The notes under the pieces were generated by a model. It saw nothing but the letters and a program-made list of their open reading frames with translations, made no database searches and had not been told where the DNA came from. Below are positions 37,547-49,931 of a stretch of DNA of 64,000 bases, piece by piece. The translations under genes and the position numbers were made by a program. Each line of letters opens with the position of its first letter. Positions within the stretch are counted from its first letter, which is position 1. Source of the stretch: Candidatus Heimdallarchaeota archaeon (lineage in GTDB: Archaea > Asgardarchaeota > Heimdallarchaeia > Hodarchaeales > Hodarchaeaceae); NCBI GenBank assembly GCA_020353515.1, contig CP070695.1:3927140-3991139 (forward strand), in the 5' to 3' direction.

Positions 37547-38314
37547 TTAATCATAGATAAATAGAATTGTTTTTTGGTCGGAATCAGCCCAAGAAGCTCG
37601 TTTCGATTCTACCATCATTTTCATGATCATACGAATATCTGGGGGGGGTAATGATGACCAAGATTGTTTCATTTTAACAATATCGAACATTGTAACCATA
37701 TCATAGCCATTTTGAAAAGCATACTCAAATAATTCATCAGTGTGAGACTTCAGAGTTTTCCAGTATATTCGGAGTCGTGTTTTTTCGTCATCCCACCATG
37801 CTGCCTTCTCAATTTCAATGAGGTATTCAGAAATCAAAACTAATTGTGGAAGTGTTAATTTCTTCTTTAGTAGAGGGTTTTTAAATGGATAAACAAGCGC
37901 TACTTCTTGGAGATCAAGAACATGAAAATTTAGTACTCGTGCAAAATCCAGCATAAATTCTCCCCACGTGGTTAACCATTGTTGTTTCAACTGGGGATCG
38001 TCAGGCACCATCCAACGCCATGGTTTTCCCACCCATGAAGGAAGAACCGGTTTTACTCGAGGATCAACAGTCCCGGGTTGAAGGTGTGCGGGTTTAACAG
38101 GCGTTGGTTTAACAGCAACCTGAGGAGTCTGAACTTTTGGTACAGCTGTGTGCTGAGAAATAGAGGATTGTGAAACATTAGCGCGGATCTGCACGAAATC
38201 TGGAGAGAGAGGCTTGTTTTGTTCTTTCGTAACCTCATCTAAGACTGATCCAAGTATATCAGCTGATTCTGTCTTTTTCTTCTCTTTTTCTCTTTTTCGT
38301 TGCATTTCAGCCAT
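37547..38314 (-). CDS. vps25: ESCRT-II subunit Vps25 with an N-terminal low-complexity extension
   Basis: QWLTTWGEFMLDF...PFKNPLLKKKL...IYWKT tandem winged-helix pattern; ESCRT context. Confidence 0.85.
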   Translation of the reverse strand: MAEMQRKREKEKKKTESADILGSVLDEVTKEQNKPLSPDFVQIRANVSQSSISQHTAVPKVQTPQVAVKPTPVKPAHLQPGTVDPRVKPVLPSWVGKPWRWMVPDDPQLKQQWLTTWGEFMLDFARVLNFHVLDLQEVALVYPFKNPLLKKKLTLPQLVLISEYLIEIEKAAWWDDEKTRLRIYWKTLKSHTDELFEYAFQNGYDMVTMFDIVKMKQSWSSLPPPDIRMIMKMMVESKRASWADSDQKTILFIYD

Positions 38315-38355: not shown

Positions 38356-39504
38356 TTATCCTCCAAATCGGTCCTTCCACTCTTCATAGCGTGTGAGTTC
38401 TTTAGGTGACACAGAAGGTTTGATACTTTCCATACCAACCAGAAAATCTTTGATACCAGGAGCCCGAGGTTGAATACTAGCATCTTTCAAAGCTCCTTCT
38501 GCGTCAAGTTCGCGAATAGGGTGCATCAAAGCTTCTCGACAAAGAAGAGCTATATCTGCAGCGGTGTATCCAGCAGTGTACTTCGCTAACTCTTCAAAAC
38601 TGACATCAGAAGCCAACTCTACACCACGAGTGTGGATCTGAAACATTTTCTCTCTAGCTTCAATTGTTGGCAAAGTAACATAAACTCGTCTCTCAAACCG
38701 TCGCCGCATTGCTGCATCAATGTCCCATGGGGTATTGGTTGCTCCAACTGTAACCAACAGTTCTTCTCCTGTACCAAATCCCTCAACTGCCTGCAAAAGC
38801 TGAGTTTTAACCCGACGCATTGCTTCTCCCTCGGAACTACCACCCCTTGCCCCTGCTAATGAGTCTATTTCGTCAAAAAATATAATTGAAGGAGATTCTT
38901 CAACAGCGCGATCATATAACTCCTTTACTAATTTCTCTGACTCTCCAAGCCACTTACTAATCAGATTCGCAGCGCTTACTGAAAAAAAAGTAGAATCAAC
39001 TTCTGATGCAACTGCTTTACAAAGGTACGTTTTTCCACAGCCTGGGGGTCCATACATCAAGATTCCTTTCCACGGTTTACGAGCACCCTTAAACAGATCT
39101 GGTCGAGACATTGGAAGAATGATCGCTTCTCGTAACGCACGCTTTGCACCTTCCATTCCAGCGACATCTTCCCATTTTACATTGGGTTTTTCTCGAACAA
39201 TAACACTCGAGATTGCCCCTGAAATTTCTTCATCCTCTTCTGGTGATACTGCGGCTGAGGAACTCTTTTTGACATCAGAAGACTCTATAATCCCGCGAAT
39301 TTCTTTCACACGTAAAATATATTCCATTGCTTTTTGGTAGTAAAGATTTTTCATATTAGGGTCGTCTGTGAAATTAATCAGCTTCTGTAATTGTTCAGCA
39401 GCACTCACATAATAACGAACAGCTTGTTGCGCCTGCCCACCTTGATCAAGCTTGTAGGCCATTGCTGCATTTTTTTTAGCAGCATCAAATAACGGGGAGC
39501 TCAT
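38356..39504 (-). CDS. vps4: Vps4 AAA ATPase (MIT plus AAA)
   Basis: N-terminal MIT; EKPNVKWEDVAG, GPPGCGKT, SKWLGESEKLVK, FDEID and RRRFERR. Confidence 0.96.
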   Translation of the reverse strand: MSSPLFDAAKKNAAMAYKLDQGGQAQQAVRYYVSAAEQLQKLINFTDDPNMKNLYYQKAMEYILRVKEIRGIIESSDVKKSSSAAVSPEEDEEISGAISSVIVREKPNVKWEDVAGMEGAKRALREAIILPMSRPDLFKGARKPWKGILMYGPPGCGKTYLCKAVASEVDSTFFSVSAANLISKWLGESEKLVKELYDRAVEESPSIIFFDEIDSLAGARGGSSEGEAMRRVKTQLLQAVEGFGTGEELLVTVGATNTPWDIDAAMRRRFERRVYVTLPTIEAREKMFQIHTRGVELASDVSFEELAKYTAGYTAADIALLCREALMHPIRELDAEGALKDASIQPRAPGIKDFLVGMESIKPSVSPKELTRYEEWKDRFGG

Positions 39505-39563: not shown

Positions 39564-40181
39564 TTACCCCTTCTTAATTTTCTCTAATTCTTTCTGTAAC
39601 TCTTGGGATCGAATGTCGGGACTTGGAAGTCCAAAATCTGCCGCAGCTGCTTTTGAAGCACTTAATTCCCCTATTATCTTATCCACCATTTCATCCTCCT
39701 CAACATCGGACGTCATCATTTCAAAACCTTCATCCATGGCTTCTGTAGCCATATCCACCCTCTCAGTCTCAATTTCCATTTGTTGAAGGACACCTTCGAG
39801 CTGAGGGATCTTAAGTTGTCTATTCATGGTGTGCAGGGTCTTTACAAGTCCTTTGAGGTCTTGACCAATTGCCTGTGTGGCTGCAGCTTGCTCTAACTTG
39901 AATTTAATGCCTTTCACTCGACTAGCCATTTGTTGGCATCCCCGAGCCATGGTTCGATTTTTAGCTACATCTTTAGCTAATAAACGTGCCGTTGTCATAT
40001 CACCAGCTTCAATAGATCGTTCAACTTCCTTAAGCATTCGTTTCTCTTCTTTGATGAGTTTATTTCGCTGTCGGTTCATCCGTTTCTCGACCATACGGAG
40101 GCGAACAATCCATCTACGAGTAGATCTAACATCGCTACCTCCACCGCCTTTTAACCAATTTCCGAATTTGTCGAAGACCAT
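39564..40181 (-). CDS. ESCRT-III subunit, Vps2/24/46-like
   Basis: GDMTTARLLAKDVAKNR; MNRQLKIPQLEGVLQQ; C-terminal MIM1-like LQKELEKIK. Confidence 0.9.
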   Translation of the reverse strand: MVFDKFGNWLKGGGGSDVRSTRRWIVRLRMVEKRMNRQRNKLIKEEKRMLKEVERSIEAGDMTTARLLAKDVAKNRTMARGCQQMASRVKGIKFKLEQAAATQAIGQDLKGLVKTLHTMNRQLKIPQLEGVLQQMEIETERVDMATEAMDEGFEMMTSDVEEDEMVDKIIGELSASKAAAADFGLPSPDIRSQELQKELEKIKKG

Positions 40182-40182
40182 C

Positions 40183-40854
40183 TTAAGACCTCAATCCTTC
40201 TTCAATCTGACGCCGCATTTCGTCGAGCTTCTTTTTATCAGCTTCACGTTTTTCAGTAACTGGTGCTTCTGATACAGGGGTGACTGGAGTGGGTGTTTCC
40301 GTTGCTGGTAAAGAACTTGTTGTCAATTCCGCTTCTAATTCGGCCATTTGTTGAGCAATTCTATCATCAGCTTCTACATCCATCCCGATTTCAGTGATCG
40401 AAGTATCAGTTAATGCTTCTTCCATGCCTGAAACCATTTCGATGGAATCTTCCAATGACATCATTACTTCTTCTGTTCTTTCAGGGGAAGCTGCATCAAT
40501 ATTGGCTTCAATAGCCGTTTGAGCTGAAGCTAAAGTTTCAGTTAGAGTAACATTATCTGCCGATACGTCTAGAGTATCAATCGTACGTTGTAGATTTGCA
40601 ATTTTATTATGAGTATTTGATACTTGGGTTAAGTAGAGTTCACGACGTTTTAGTGCTTGTTGAGCTCCCATTTTATTTCCAGATTTCATCAAAGTTCGAG
40701 CAAGTTCATATTGTTCATCAGCTTGCCGTTGATAATTACGAATTTTAACTTCCATTTGGTTGATGGTACGTTTGAGTTTAGCTTTCGTTTCAGTACTACC
40801 AGAGGGCTTTTTACCTGTTAGGAAACCTTTAAATCGTTTCACGGGGTAATTCAT
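40183..40854 (-). CDS. ESCRT-III subunit, Vps20/32/60 (Snf7)-like
   Basis: GNKMGAQQALKRRELY; acidic C-terminal half with a Pro-rich linker. Confidence 0.9.
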   Translation of the reverse strand: MNYPVKRFKGFLTGKKPSGSTETKAKLKRTINQMEVKIRNYQRQADEQYELARTLMKSGNKMGAQQALKRRELYLTQVSNTHNKIANLQRTIDTLDVSADNVTLTETLASAQTAIEANIDAASPERTEEVMMSLEDSIEMVSGMEEALTDTSITEIGMDVEADDRIAQQMAELEAELTTSSLPATETPTPVTPVSEAPVTEKREADKKKLDEMRRQIEEGLRS

Positions 40855-41056: not shown

Positions 41057-41785
41057 TCAGATCCCAGGAAAGGATAATACTATTCCGTCTAATGTTTCTG
41101 TCTTAATAGCTATTTTTTGTTTGGTTAATTGCGTGAGTGCTTGATTGACACGTTCTAATGTCCATGAAGTCTCTCGAACCAAATCAGTTAAACCAATTTC
41201 CCCCCGAAAACGAGCTGCTAGTTCTAAGATGATTTGATGATCTTGATTAAGGTTTGGATCAACAAAAATAATGACTTTCATCCCAGATAATTGACGGATT
41301 TCATGAATCATTCCATTTTTTACTAGCAGATTTAGTGCTTTTGTGATATCACCAAAGGGGGCTGTGATTCCTTGACTTTCATCGCTTAATTTTAAAGCCA
41401 ATTCCGAGACACTTAAGAGACCACCTGTTTGATTACGTAGCTGTTTTCCGATCTCAAGGATTCTTAACGCTAAGAAATTATGATATTCATCCTTTCCTTT
41501 CAATCGTTGCTTCAACCCAGGTTGTTTCCCTACCTCATAGATCCCAATCGCACGAGGAAGTCCCAATTCTTCCCGTAGTGCCATTAATTGTCGTGCTAAT
41601 TCAGGATTTTTCTTAAGATCTGTCTGATATCGTTTTTCTAATTTCTGTAAATCCCTGTGCAGCTCTTGTACTTTTGAGCTCATCTCAGCTAAGGATTTCA
41701 GTGCTAGTTCTGCACCTTTACGTTTCATTTCCGCTTCCTTAGTGAGTTTTTCTTCGATTCTACGTAATCCCATTCTTGTAATCAT
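41057..41785 (-). CDS. ESCRT-II subunit Vps22/36-like (EAP30)
   Basis: LALRILEIG..LRNQTGGLLSVSEL; LNQDHQIILELA; WTLERVNQAL. Confidence 0.9.
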   Translation of the reverse strand: MITRMGLRRIEEKLTKEAEMKRKGAELALKSLAEMSSKVQELHRDLQKLEKRYQTDLKKNPELARQLMALREELGLPRAIGIYEVGKQPGLKQRLKGKDEYHNFLALRILEIGKQLRNQTGGLLSVSELALKLSDESQGITAPFGDITKALNLLVKNGMIHEIRQLSGMKVIIFVDPNLNQDHQIILELAARFRGEIGLTDLVRETSWTLERVNQALTQLTKQKIAIKTETLDGIVLSFPGI

Positions 41786-42064: not shown

Positions 42065-43408
42065 TTGTACATAACGCTAGAGATGACTTCACGGATGACA
42101 AGTCTTTATTGTTCATTTTGTGGCACAATGACTCATGAGTTGGATTCCCAGAAGTGTTCTGATTGTGGTGCGGCATTTTGTCCCCAATGTGCTTCTCAAT
42201 TAAGAAACACTGGTTCACAAATTAAATGTCCCTGTGGTTCAATTAATATCAAGGGTAGGTCCTCTGGACAAAACTCGAAAAGTGAAACTTTAGAACAAAT
42301 TTTTGATTTAAAGCGATCCCTAAAGCAAGTTGCTTACCGTCCAGTCCTTGTACTCAAACGAACTGGTCATCTCGAATCAAGATTACGATCTTTTCGGAAA
42401 CAATTTCTAATTCCAGGAAATCAAATTGACAAGATTTTTCTTGAAACTAAAAAAATTGAAAATTTTACATTATCGGAATTTCAGGAATATTCAGCTAAAT
42501 TAAATCGATTATATCGGAATTTAATGGGATTAAATTCTTCCTTTACTGACCATCGGAACTTTTCCTTGCAACTGACTCTTTTTCAGAAACAAATTAGAAG
42601 CTTTGATCAGACTGTACAAGACAAACTCCTACCAATTTATGATTTGATTGAACAAATGGAAAATAAATGTGATCAGTTTGAAGAAATGGCGCGACATCTT
42701 GGACGATGTTTTGATGCCTTTGTTTTCGTCCCTGGGGAATTAGTTATTGGTTATTTTGCTAATATAGAGTTACAGAATAGTCGGATCAGAAAGACTACCA
42801 TTGATATTGTGATTACCACAGACAGAATTGTGCTACTCAAATGGAAGAGATTCAATCTAAGAGGTCAAAGAACAAAAAAATTTGATGAATTTCCTCCAGA
42901 AGATCTAATTGATGTTCAAAAAACGAAAATAGGCTTCTTTAAGCGTGATAAACTACAAATCACAACCATTCAACATGATTATGAGTTACGTACTGACGGA
43001 GATACCCTAATGCGGATTTTTGATGGCCTACAACTTAGTTATTACGGTAGGCCTAGTGAAATTTACGTCCATGAGCCCTTTCGTGATTGGTCCTCAGAAA
43101 TTTATCAAGAAAAAATCCTTTCAGGACTCAATTTTCATAATAACAATAATGGATCTCCTGAACATTCTTCCAACCAAAATAAGGAACCTGACTTTGTAAC
43201 TGGTGTACTAGATGATCGTCTTCGTGACCTCCGTCTACGTAAGCTAGCGAATGAAAAAGCGTTACAAGAACTAAAAGAAGGACGGAAAAAAGTATCTAGT
43301 CGAGATTACTTCGATTTGATAAAGCAATTTGAATTAGAGCTAGCTAAAATTAATGAAGCAATTACTGAACTTCTTGTTAGAACTGGAAAAACAAATCTCT
43401 TAGGATGA
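42065..43408 (+). CDS. FYVE-like Zn finger, coiled coil, PH/GLUE-like domain and steadiness-box-like C-terminal helices
   Basis: CxxC-x11-CxxC-x4-CxxC-x12-CxC; PGELVI...IVITTDRIVLL...IGFFKRDKLQI; ALQELKEGRKKVSSRDYFDLIK. Confidence 0.6.
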   Translation: MYITLEMTSRMTSLYCSFCGTMTHELDSQKCSDCGAAFCPQCASQLRNTGSQIKCPCGSINIKGRSSGQNSKSETLEQIFDLKRSLKQVAYRPVLVLKRTGHLESRLRSFRKQFLIPGNQIDKIFLETKKIENFTLSEFQEYSAKLNRLYRNLMGLNSSFTDHRNFSLQLTLFQKQIRSFDQTVQDKLLPIYDLIEQMENKCDQFEEMARHLGRCFDAFVFVPGELVIGYFANIELQNSRIRKTTIDIVITTDRIVLLKWKRFNLRGQRTKKFDEFPPEDLIDVQKTKIGFFKRDKLQITTIQHDYELRTDGDTLMRIFDGLQLSYYGRPSEIYVHEPFRDWSSEIYQEKILSGLNFHNNNNGSPEHSSNQNKEPDFVTGVLDDRLRDLRLRKLANEKALQELKEGRKKVSSRDYFDLIKQFELELAKINEAITELLVRTGKTNLLG

Positions 43409-43433: not shown

Positions 43434-44063
43434 TTAGAGATTGCTCAACTCTCGTCGAAAATCTGAAAGCCATCTTGAAGTTTGTAACTCTAATTTTTGT
43501 AATTCATCTCTTTGTAAGAGTTGGCCTGGTTTTTGTGTATCCATCCACTTAATCCACTGATCGATGTCTTGAGTCACCCAGTGATTAGGACCATAAACAC
43601 GAGATGATGTTAGAATGGATATAAGCTCATCTAAATACGGGAGAATTCGATCAACTGTAGCAATAGCTTCTAAACGAAGAAGATCAAGTAATTCAATCGC
43701 ATTGGCCACGAATTCGGCAGCTATACGAGGTAACTTCTTAATTTGAGTATAATCAATCCGGTTGTGAGGTGTGTCATCAGTCCCCTCGGTTATACGAAGT
43801 TTCTCCAAACCATAAGGGAATTGTTGGTCGAGCTTCTCAGATCGAATAAAGTCGTCTAAATCAAAATGAGATTCTGCTAACTTTGCTCTAATTGAAACAA
43901 TCGTTGATAAAAGATTTTTATGCTGTTTATGGAAAATATTAGGATCTAATTCACCTTGCTCATAAGATCGTGAAAGGAGATCTAGGGTTCCAATACTTGC
44001 ATATAGCCGTCCTTCTAATTCCCAACGTTTCTCTAAATTAGGAGGAAATGTCATGGGTCTCAT
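43434..44063 (-). CDS. vps28: ESCRT-I subunit Vps28
   Basis: LYASIGTLDLLSRSY; AEFVANAIELLDLLRLE...DRILPYLDEL. Confidence 0.9.
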   Translation of the reverse strand: MRPMTFPPNLEKRWELEGRLYASIGTLDLLSRSYEQGELDPNIFHKQHKNLLSTIVSIRAKLAESHFDLDDFIRSEKLDQQFPYGLEKLRITEGTDDTPHNRIDYTQIKKLPRIAAEFVANAIELLDLLRLEAIATVDRILPYLDELISILTSSRVYGPNHWVTQDIDQWIKWMDTQKPGQLLQRDELQKLELQTSRWLSDFRRELSNL

Positions 44064-44064
44064 C

Positions 44065-44823
44065 CTATCTTAAGTATTCTTCCTGTTTTTTAAGCATGTA
44101 CAATTCTTTTGTATATTTTTTGTACAATCGAGAGTATTCAAAAATTGATATTTCCCCTGCTGCGTAACGGTCTTCTAATGACGCGAGGAGATCAGAAATA
44201 GCAATACGTTCTGTTTCAAGATCATCTCGTTTTGATAGACTTGCTTGATCTAGACTCCGTGATGGTTGTGCCTGAACTACTTGTTGTGCACGAAATCGTG
44301 CTAATTCTTCATCTTTTTTCTGAATTTGTTGAGTTAGTGATTCTACTTCTGTTCGTAAAACTGTAGTTTCAGCAGAAGTTGTCTGAGGTTCAACGACAGG
44401 AGGCGTTTCAGTTAGCCTAGCAACTGTTTCTCGAGCTGATTTAGCCACTTCTCCTCGCGGAGTAGGAGGCACTCTTGACATCAAATTCTTTAATGCTATA
44501 ACAACCTGATAAAGATGGAATTCTGCACGCCAATTGTCTAAGATTCGTAATTGCACAAAGGAATCTTCATCAATGTTTGGGTGATCCATGTAACCAACTG
44601 CTGTTACAACAGGTGGAACATTTGGAAAGTATTCTGGTAAAAAGATTTCAAAAGTAAACATATTCCTTCCCCGACTTGTTGTATAGGTCAATGTTCCTTG
44701 CCATCGTGCCAAGGAATCCCCTACAGGATTAAAACCAGAGGCAGCAGAATTGGAATAAACCAGTTGGGCCTCTCTAGCTAAGATAAAATCTCTATCCATG
44801 TTCATTTTAGCTCCTTTTTTCAA
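44065..44823 (-). CDS. vps23: ESCRT-I subunit Vps23/TSG101 (UEV, Pro-rich region, coiled coil, steadiness box)
   Basis: UEV FPNVPP...HPNIDEDSFVQL with Gln where E2 enzymes have the catalytic Cys; steadiness box AISDLLASLEDRYAAGEISIFEY. Confidence 0.9.
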   Translation of the reverse strand: MKKGAKMNMDRDFILAREAQLVYSNSAASGFNPVGDSLARWQGTLTYTTSRGRNMFTFEIFLPEYFPNVPPVVTAVGYMDHPNIDEDSFVQLRILDNWRAEFHLYQVVIALKNLMSRVPPTPRGEVAKSARETVARLTETPPVVEPQTTSAETTVLRTEVESLTQQIQKKDEELARFRAQQVVQAQPSRSLDQASLSKRDDLETERIAISDLLASLEDRYAAGEISIFEYSRLYKKYTKELYMLKKQEEYLR

Positions 44824-45132: not shown

Positions 45133-46350
45133 TTACTTTCCTCTAGGTGGTTGTACAGAAGCTAGGAAATCAATAATTGCTTCACCTAGTAGTTCAAACG
45201 CCTTTTCTATATTTTCACCTGTTTTAGCACTACTTTGAAGAAAGTAAATTTTGAATCCGCGATATCTCTCTGAAATCTGCGATAATCGAGAAACAAACGC
45301 ATGAGCTTTTGATTCAGACACACATGGCATTCCTACTGAACATAAATCTGTTTTATTTCCTAAAACAATTAAAGGGACAGGACCTCTACCATTGTTACGC
45401 CATAGCTCATTCATCCATTTTACGATATTTTGGAAACTTTCAGGACGAGTCATGTCGAAAACGACCAGTGCACCTACCGCGGACATGTAATAAATTTTTC
45501 TGACATTATGAAAGCGTGGTTGTCCAGCCAAATCCCAAATCAAATATTTGATCTGTTTTCCTCCAGCATATACGATGTCAGATGTCTTGGCTGCTAGATC
45601 AGCACCTATAGTCATTTGATAGTCGACTTTGAATCCTTCACCAAGGTATTGTCGTCGAATAGATGTCTTTCCTACAGCGCCATCCCCGATCAAGATAACT
45701 TTTAAGGTGTGATGTTCTTGAATAAGGGTTGCTTTGGCTGATGCAATTGCACGATCGATTTCAGTCCGTAATTCTGTGTTCTTCTGGATATTTCTTTCTG
45801 TATGCCTTTTTATAGCCTTTCCAATTTGAATTGCTAGTGTACTGACTTTATCTCGAGGAATATGTTTTGAAGTGACAATAGAAACAATAAATATCTCTTC
45901 AACTACAAAAAAATGGATTGTTTGAGATTCAAGAGTTAAAACTTCTACCAATTCACCCAATTTATACTGAGTATAATTTTTTATCACGTTCGACATAAAA
46001 TTTCGTGATTCTTGGTAGTCGATCTTAGTTAATAATGGATAGTCAAATATCGGAGTACCACTGTACATGAAACACGAAATCAAGTAGATATCTTCCGTTT
46101 TTCTTGCTTCTAACCCAAATTGCCTAAAATCTTCCAAATGATCCTTCTCTGTCTTTTCAGCTTCCGAATATGCTTCATCTAAGATACTTAGGTAATCTTT
46201 ACGTCCAGACATGGCATCTTCGAGATTGACACGAACCTTGAGATAAAATTCTTCCATTTCATCAGCCCTTGCCTCATCAAGAACTTTATCCTCAAGGGAT
46301 TTACTCCTAACTTCCTTTTTATCCCTGTTTATGGGATTATTATTGTCCAT
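45133..46350 (-). CDS. Longin-like domain fused to a Rab-like GTPase
   Basis: Longin-like IYLISCFMYSGTPIF...; GDGAVGKTS, TIGAD, WDLAGQ, NKTD and SAK. Confidence 0.85.
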   Translation of the reverse strand: MDNNNPINRDKKEVRSKSLEDKVLDEARADEMEEFYLKVRVNLEDAMSGRKDYLSILDEAYSEAEKTEKDHLEDFRQFGLEARKTEDIYLISCFMYSGTPIFDYPLLTKIDYQESRNFMSNVIKNYTQYKLGELVEVLTLESQTIHFFVVEEIFIVSIVTSKHIPRDKVSTLAIQIGKAIKRHTERNIQKNTELRTEIDRAIASAKATLIQEHHTLKVILIGDGAVGKTSIRRQYLGEGFKVDYQMTIGADLAAKTSDIVYAGGKQIKYLIWDLAGQPRFHNVRKIYYMSAVGALVVFDMTRPESFQNIVKWMNELWRNNGRGPVPLIVLGNKTDLCSVGMPCVSESKAHAFVSRLSQISERYRGFKIYFLQSSAKTGENIEKAFELLGEAIIDFLASVQPPRGK

Positions 46351-49595: not shown

Positions 49596-49841
49596 TTAGT
49601 TTGGAAAACCACCGGTAGTTCGTGTGATCATGTACAACTTATCCATGTCTTCTATTCCCGCAGACTTGAGAGTCTCGCTCTCATCTAGTTGTTTACCTTG
49701 GAAGACAAGAATAACTGAACGAGCAGGGATTCGCTTTTCTTGAGCTACTCGTTCTTTAATAGCGGCCACAGAATCGGTTTTTTCGCATGGTAGAGTGATT
49801 TCTCCACCCCCAATGGCTTGAACAACATTAATCTGCATCAT
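49596..49841 (-). CDS. Ubiquitin precursor (diglycine followed by an FPN extension)
   Basis: MQINV...IKERVAQEKRIP...LVFQGKQLD..TL...TRTTGG-FPN. Start placed at ATG 49841 rather than TTG 49880. Confidence 0.93.
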   Translation of the reverse strand: MMQINVVQAIGGGEITLPCEKTDSVAAIKERVAQEKRIPARSVILVFQGKQLDESETLKSAGIEDMDKLYMITRTTGGFPN

Positions 49842-49931
49842 GAATTCCTTCGTTACTTTGTCTAAGTAGACTATTTCCAACCTTTAAAATATATTGAATG
49901 TGGAACCTGAATGTGTATTCTGTCCCTTTGG

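Follow-up and report, generated by a model that had tools for sequence, protein, structure and literature searches.

How the assemblies ESCRT-I and ESCRT-II (ESCRT, endosomal sorting complexes that are required for transport) of Hodarchaeales reach membranes, and how they connect, is the question raised by one gene in a 64,000-nucleotide stretch of DNA from a Candidatus Heimdallarchaeota archaeon (assembly GCA_020353515.1, contig CP070695.1, forward-strand positions 3,927,140–3,991,139). This whole stretch is termed the window here. Of the archaea known at present, Hodarchaeales rank among those most closely related to eukaryotes, and in these organisms the gene is placed exactly between the ESCRT-II gene (Vps22) and the ESCRT-I genes (Vps28, Vps23). 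Its product is probably the Hodarchaeales orthologue of the Asgard family Znr_CC_PH_SB, trimmed to one finger with eight cysteines (8-Cys) and a diverged steadiness box, and working as an ESCRT adaptor.

Relation to the Asgard family Znr_CC_PH_SB

Znr_CC_PH_SB (asCOG cog.011556) is an Asgard-specific family reported by Makarova et al. (2024, mBio, PMC10936438), which consists of zinc ribbons, a coiled coil, a PH domain and a steadiness box and is considered probably ancestral in Asgard archaea. The steadiness box led these authors to regard the family as a likely ESCRT-I component, and its PH domain is expected to be membrane-associated, by analogy with Vps36. The window protein shows the same order of modules, i.e. 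a zinc-binding N-terminus, coiled coil, PH domain and C-terminal steadiness-box hairpin. It also shares the Asgard-only distribution, the linkage to ESCRT genes and a profile match over its full length. A profile of 19 relatives from outside Hodarchaeales gives an E-value of 5.9e-30 with the window protein, residues 6–432 aligning with model positions 40–487, and the distant-relative profile aligns the tail of the window protein helix for helix. Residues are numbered throughout from the ATG at window position 42083 (441 amino acid, aa, form). Judged from these profile matches, the window gene adds a new and diverged member to an Asgard ESCRT family that was already known.

A profile of Hodarchaeales proteins searched against 1.84 billion representative proteins gives only 19 matches. 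These include proteins of 437–565 aa from other Heimdall-group genomes, e.g. LC_3, whose module order is identical to that of the window protein. In a six-frame search of 400 Asgard genomes, matches are found in 86, some of the weaker ones covering the zinc finger alone. Typical relatives elsewhere in Asgard archaea are open reading frames of ~500 aa, found in many Asgard families. Their N-termini show B-box and double zinc ribbon matches in Pfam, and their PH regions match bPH_3, GRAM or Vps36_ESCRT-II. An atlas look-up yields only Asgard hypothetical-protein clusters with scores <0.9, which serve as leads only.

Among close relatives, 54 homologues share 47–100% identity with the window protein. 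They come mostly from Hodarchaeales-type metagenome bins, and every one is annotated as 'hypothetical protein'. The gene is found in 20 of the 21 genomes of the genus (six-frame search). Across 21 homologues there is little or no variation in the eight cysteines, in a TTDRI and a D-W-S-S-E motif and in much of the tail, and conservation of the open reading frame is far beyond chance. It is kept next to Vps28 in all 18 related Hodarchaeales-type loci, and next to Vps22 wherever that flank lies on the contig. Of 20 distant loci examined, at least 10 have the relative directly beside ESCRT-III, Vps4, Vps25 or Vps22 genes. Thus the expectation of the sequence-only reading that orthologues would be tied to ESCRT loci is borne out by the synteny survey. 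That reading had also termed the gene unassigned, a description that does not hold in the literature because the family was published in 2024 (PMC10936438).

The earlier hypothesis of a membrane-targeting third ESCRT-I subunit is therefore largely a published prediction, and since the idea is already in print its remaining value lies in a biochemical test rather than in discovery. What is new here is that the Hodarchaeales proteins are full-length family members even though their zinc module is trimmed and their steadiness box cryptic. Also new are the conserved position beside Vps28 and Vps22 (18 loci), the removal of FYVE from the description and a clue to the docking site from a fusion with EAP30, described below.

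A published entry with some likeness to the window protein is a Heimdall-group protein of ~435 aa that combines a zinc module with a PH domain, the gene of which lies next to ESCRT-III (PMC10936438). Its annotation there includes no steadiness box and does not mark it as an ESCRT component. The Hodarchaeales profile matches a relative of this type (L062, 469 aa). The Heimdallarchaeia-type locus concerned (L062:1787–3196, + strand, and L062:9002–10408, - strand) carries a 470 aa Vps28-containing protein, which resembles the published UEV-Vps23-Vps28 fusion, together with this relative of the window gene. The relative is located 1.2 kb from ESCRT-III and its tail appears still less steadiness-box-like.

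The C-terminal tail

The tail of the window protein had been noted to parallel the steadiness box of the neighbouring Vps23, and the parallel is upheld through intermediate sequences. With hhalign, Hodarchaeales tails match family tails with P = 4.4e-5, and with P = 6.3e-8 (probability 95%) when intermediate sequences are added. Family tails in turn match the Vps23 steadiness box with P = 2.5e-8 (95%) and the Vps28 N-terminal hairpin with 9.4e-6, and the Hodarchaeales tails plus intermediates match Vps23 with 2.8e-4. Controls (the Snf7 hairpin and the protein's own coiled coil) are all 0.05 or worse. In the relatives the last ~50 residues also align with the steadiness box in the profile of Hodarchaeales Vps23 (positions 196–244/247) with E-values down to 2.7e-8, as well as the Vps28 N-terminal hairpin at about 1e-6. 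The Pfam Vps23_core model is found at the tail of one relative (L050) with an E-value of 5.3e-6 and a bit score (26.8) that lies at the gathering score, and at six others with 2e-4 to 0.1. By this chain of profile matches the tail of the Hodarchaeales proteins is a steadiness box that has diverged. When PDB sequences were searched with profiles of the window tail and of the Vps23 tail, no ESCRT-I chain was found, but these searches are uninformative because the positive control failed too.

The PH domain and the long helices

An AlphaFold2 model of the window protein, built on 21 homologues, has a mean pLDDT (predicted local distance difference test score) of 79. The zinc finger occupies residues 1–57 and is followed by three long helices, which align to the region of the family profile that is coiled coil; the long coiled coil seen in the sequence-only reading corresponds to these. 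Residues 221–321 form a seven-strand sandwich capped by a C-terminal helix. Beyond the PH domain the model shows a short conserved helix (339–349), a low-confidence linker (353–373, pLDDT <50) and a helical hairpin at the C-terminus. Just past the PH domain, Hodarchaeales proteins keep the P-F-R-D-W-S-S-E motif almost unchanged, and W336 is kept in distant relatives.

The middle segment had been described as PH-like. An exhaustive structural comparison of residues 209–326 bears this out, with the MTMR2 PH-GRAM domain as top match (Z = 13.0, root mean square deviation, rmsd, 2.8 Å, 110 residues). The EAP45 GLUE domain matches with Z = 11.0 (rmsd 3.1 Å, 97 residues) and dozens of other PH domains with Z = 10.5–12.4. 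The TTDRI strand motif is typical of GRAM/GLUE-type PH domains, and R236, K237, R248, K287 and R288 are basic residues conserved in the domain. The segment is firmly predicted to adopt the PH superfold, of the GRAM/GLUE/bacterial-PH kind, the subtype being beyond the resolution of a modelled structure alone. In Pfam, the PH segments of 26 family members match bPH_3 in 17 cases (best 4.9e-7), Vps36_ESCRT-II (PF11605) in 11 (1.2e-5) and GRAM in 10 (6.3e-5). The bPH_3 model outscores the GLUE profile on these segments. The window's own PH segment matches none of these three Pfam models, being too diverged. In a PDB profile search the yeast Vps36 GLUE domain appears with an E-value of 0.86.

The zinc finger

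The 8-Cys finger noted in the sequence is present, and C10, C13, C25, C28, C33, C36, C49 and C51 are conserved among the 21 homologues. The spacing, CxxC-11-CxxC-4-CxxC-12-CxC, is compatible with any cross-braced finger that binds two zinc ions. Only marginal finger matches, with E-values of 0.01–9, are found when the family profile is compared with PDB sequences, and B-box, C1 and RING domains equal or exceed FYVE domains among them. The isolated finger modelled alone (pLDDT 72.5) has no significant structural neighbour. The closest folds are a ribosomal zinc ribbon (Z = 5.0) and the TRAF3 RING domain (Z = 4.7; Foldseek TM-score 0.58, E-value 0.1), with ZZ and U-box domains also among the best, all at Z ≤5. 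The list is without FYVE domains except for one FYVE-related domain, that of melanophilin (Z = 3.4). The model suggests, weakly, a generic RING/ZZ/B-box-like cross-brace.

Proposed role and alternative readings

Given the folds of the parts, the family homology, the homology of the family tails to the Vps23 and Vps28 hairpins and the ESCRT gene linkage, all shown by the analysis, a scheme for the adaptor may be outlined, in which the partners bound, any affinity for lipid or ubiquitin, and the stoichiometry are presumptive. The C-terminal hairpin would dock into the steadiness-box hairpin bundle that holds the early ESCRT subunits (Vps23, Vps28). Contact with membrane, cargo or ubiquitin would come from the zinc finger together with the GRAM/GLUE-like PH domain, and the long helices could form a spacer or an oligomerisation stalk. 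The result would be an archaeal adaptor that covers jobs split in eukaryotes between Vps37 and the GLUE domain of Vps36. The role of a third ESCRT-I subunit is plausible and agrees with the proposal of Makarova et al. (PMC10936438). Hatano et al. (2022, PMC9192718) report that Asgard archaea are without Vps37 and full-length Vps36, and conclude that ESCRT-I is probably linked to ESCRT-II by an 'undetermined factor'. The window protein is the obvious candidate for this factor. That no Vps37 gene is visible agrees with Pfam, as Mod_r (PF07200) gives no match at E-values up to 1 in the window protein or anywhere in the genome, only noise. This is a weak test, because a Vps23_core search of the same genome also yields only noise and misses the genome's own Vps23 tail. 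Of the earlier interpretation as a whole, the PH fold, the steadiness-box tail and the ESCRT linkage stand, and the FYVE part falls.

Several observations weigh against an ESCRT-I adaptor. When hhalign sets the Hodarchaeales tail directly against that of the neighbouring Vps23, the match is not significant (E-value 0.16, in the register first noticed, and 0.09 in another comparison). The hairpin (371–434) is preceded by the low-confidence linker and has no stalk helix, unlike those of Vps23 and Vps37. The window protein itself shows no significant Pfam match, and neither lipid-binding nor ubiquitin-binding residues can be assigned in it. The odinarchaeal ESCRT-I is complete as a Vps23 dimer with Vps28, no third protein being present (Hatano et al., PMC9192718). 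In most lineages outside Hodarchaeales the gene is found on the ESCRT-III/ESCRT-II side and not next to Vps23/Vps28. A complex prediction of the tail (335–441) with Vps23 (145–252) and Vps28 (1–120) scored 0.34, 0.00 and 0.00 in separate runs and is not counted either way.

The protein may instead be a Vps36-like arm of ESCRT-II, with its tail docking either on a dimer of Vps22 or on the core of Vps22 and Vps25, rather than acting as a third ESCRT-I subunit. The GLUE-like PH domain and zinc finger, present in cis in eukaryotic Vps36, would then be supplied in trans and bridge membrane, ubiquitin and ESCRT-I. In one small-genome Asgard genus the family's module of three zinc ribbons, coiled coil and PH domain is found fused to an EAP30 winged-helix core, which replaces the steadiness box. 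The family profile covers residues 6–371 of the fusion protein (E-value 7e-72), PF04157 is found at residues 460–585 (1.8e-11), and the gene adjoins ESCRT-III with a separate Vps22-Vps28-Vps23 block nearby. This fusion follows the domain logic of eukaryotic Vps36, an architecture that the literature says Asgard archaea lack. This natural fusion, the usual position on the ESCRT-III/ESCRT-II side in distant lineages (beside ESCRT-III, Vps25 or Vps22, not Vps23/Vps28) and the divergent pairing with Vps22 in the window make ESCRT-II docking a serious rival to a Vps37-like role, and gene order and the fusion hint at it at least as well as at the ESCRT-I role. The Vps36_ESCRT-II matches among the family PH segments point the same way, as do a steadiness box in Asgard Vps22 according to Makarova et al. 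(PMC10936438) and a yeast two-hybrid interaction of a Loki steadiness-box protein with Vps22 (Hatano et al., PMC9192718). However, the family tail is closest in sequence to the Vps23 and Vps28 hairpins, and the PH domain is a better fit to bPH_3 than to GLUE. A steadiness box sought in Vps22 or Vps25 of Hodarchaeales, at the N-terminus, scores no better than controls (P = 0.006–0.04 for Vps22 versus 0.018 for a helical control). The fusion is limited to three genomes, all of a single genus, and to three protein clusters out of 5.8 billion, and could be a late, unrelated event. Docking on ESCRT-II is a possible but doubtful alternative to the ESCRT-I adaptor.

Two further readings are very improbable. 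As an ESCRT-0-like FYVE protein, the product would read phosphatidylinositol 3-phosphate with its zinc finger, which the sequence-only reading had called FYVE-like. The cysteine spacing does resemble FYVE, the profile gives weak matches to the FYVE domains of EEA1, SAKURA, Vps27 and Hrs (E-values 0.05–9), and some relatives show sub-threshold Pfam FYVE scores of 0.013–0.16. But the FYVE motifs WxxD, R(R/K)HHCR and RVC are absent from all 21 homologues, the second Cys pair of the window protein stands in the context S-Q-K-C-S-D-C-G, and a Pfam scan of the window protein gives no FYVE match. The FYVE reading is rejected because these motifs are missing; the fold neighbours of the finger and the equal or better B-box, C1 and RING profiles also stand against it. 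Just as improbable is a guanine nucleotide exchange factor of the DH-PH type (DH, Dbl-homology) for the neighbouring Rab-like GTPase, the gene of which is 1.7 kb distant. Foldseek with the whole model ranks DH-PH RhoGEF fragments at the top (E-value about 1e-5), a ranking that arises because the model has helices followed by a PH domain and not because it has a Dbl-homology domain. The superposition is poor, with TM-scores of just 0.17–0.39 and rmsd 16–23 Å, and this reading is rejected on that ground. Structural alignments across helices and PH domain have rmsd 8–17 Å, so the score stems from the PH domain. In addition, there are three helices only versus the larger DH bundle, the window protein shows no RhoGEF signal in Pfam, and DH domains act on Rho rather than Rab.

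The gene and its neighbourhood

The gene (Table 1) is a genuine open reading frame with its stop codon at 43406–43408. The longest frame opens at TTG, and homologue alignments make the ATG at 42083 or the ATG at 42095 (437 aa) the likelier start, the 437 aa form being the version present in the protein collection. Public sequencing runs that contain the stretch are sediment-metagenome DNA runs only; no RNA run is listed with it.

Table 1. Positions of the gene, its neighbours and its parts in the window
Feature	Window position	Strand	Notes and basis
Whole open reading frame	42065–43408	+	TTG longest frame; ATG 42083 or 42095 likely start
8-Cys zinc finger	42110–42241	+	residues 10–53; Cys conservation, isolated-domain fold, weak PDB profile matches
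Three long helices (coiled-coil/helical-bundle region)	42263–42706	+	residues 61–102, 112–147, 157–208; model pLDDT mostly 85–96
PH-fold domain	42707–43060	+	residues 209–326; conserved TTDRI strand motif, structural matches
P-F-R-D-W-S-S-E motif and short helix	43076–43129	+	residues 332–349; conservation, model
C-terminal helical hairpin (diverged steadiness box)	43193–43384	+	residues 371–399, 406–434; profile chain
Vps25	37547–38314		part of ubiquitin-ESCRT neighbourhood
Vps4	38356–39504		part of ubiquitin-ESCRT neighbourhood
Two Snf7-family ESCRT-III genes	39564–40854		part of ubiquitin-ESCRT neighbourhood
Vps22 (EAP30)	41057–41785	-	divergent neighbour; PF04157 2.4e-15; synteny
Vps28	43434–44063	-	convergent neighbour; PF03997 2.4e-13; synteny
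Vps23-like (E2-variant/UEV, coiled coil, steadiness box)	44065–44823	-	UQ_con 1.1e-12, UEV 0.005; tail alignment

The surroundings of the gene are a textbook case of an Asgard ubiquitin-ESCRT locus. The three flanking genes (EAP30/Vps22, Vps28 and Vps23/UEV) are confirmed via Pfam, in agreement with the earlier placement of the gene between a divergent Vps22 and a convergent Vps28. Further along the locus are genes for a Rab-like GTPase, a membrane protein resembling Yip1, an E1-like enzyme and, at 49596–49880, a ubiquitin-like protein. Together Vps22, the window gene, Vps28 and Vps23 form a compact four-gene set for reconstitution.

The Vps23-like protein scores better with UQ_con than with UEV. 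It retains the HPN motif, and the position of the catalytic Cys of E2 enzymes is apparently without Cys, which is consistent with a ubiquitin-binding E2 variant. Its tail goes undetected by Pfam Vps23_core. In the Rab-like GTPase (45133–46350, - strand) the Ras family domain is at residues 217–392, and an N-terminal extension of ~200 residues is without a Pfam match. This gene adjoins Vps23 in all 17 related loci that reach that far. In two Hodarchaeales-type relatives extra DNA of ~2.6 kb (L003:5364–8000) and ~1.5 kb (L008:802–2341) is found between Vps22 and the orthologue, where the gap in the window is only ~300 bp. One orthologue of the same genus (G061:C137:662–1984, L035) contains a single in-frame TGA, for which a sequencing error, a pseudogene or recoding is possible. 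The EAP30 fusion protein of 601 aa is encoded at L065:8901–10703 (+ strand; the same as G298:C138:83400–85202), and also in L073 (G299) and in L074 (G297), where it is cut at the contig end.

Comparison with known systems

Members of Znr_CC_PH_SB have ~500–650 aa and typically three zinc ribbons, whereas the Hodarchaeales protein has 437–441 aa and one 8-Cys module. Its steadiness box is so diverged that both Pfam and direct profile comparison miss it, and its gene is found between Vps22 and Vps28 instead of beside ESCRT-III. With Vps27/Hrs and FREE1 the likeness is that of an eight-Cys, two-zinc finger of similar spacing to their FYVE domains, but the window finger lacks every FYVE signature motif and its structural neighbours are RING, ZZ and U-box domains.

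Vps37 resembles the window protein in its C-terminal helical hairpin, related to the steadiness box of Vps23, and the window hairpin could in principle take the third position in the headpiece. Unlike Vps37 (Mod_r), the window protein carries its hairpin after a disordered linker without a stalk helix, has its long helices N-terminal to the PH domain, and contains PH and zinc modules that Vps37 lacks, with no Mod_r signal.

Likeness to Vps36/EAP45 consists of the GLUE-similar PH fold, the Vps36_ESCRT-II matches at the family level and the ESCRT context, and zinc fingers are associated with the PH domain in yeast Vps36 as they are here. The window chain, however, has a steadiness-box tail in place of EAP30 winged-helix domains, and its zinc module is N-terminal and not inserted in the PH domain. 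A bolder and rather unlikely proposal is that the N-terminal GLUE arm of Vps36 has its archaeal counterpart, and perhaps its ancestor, in Znr_CC_PH_SB. On this view Asgard ESCRT-II would consist of a Vps22 dimer with a membrane/ubiquitin reader held in trans by steadiness-box docking, and eukaryotic Vps36 would have arisen from fusion of the PH/zinc module to a Vps22 paralogue. Such an arrangement is present today in one Asgard genus, with its Zn-CC-PH-EAP30 protein next to a separate Vps22.

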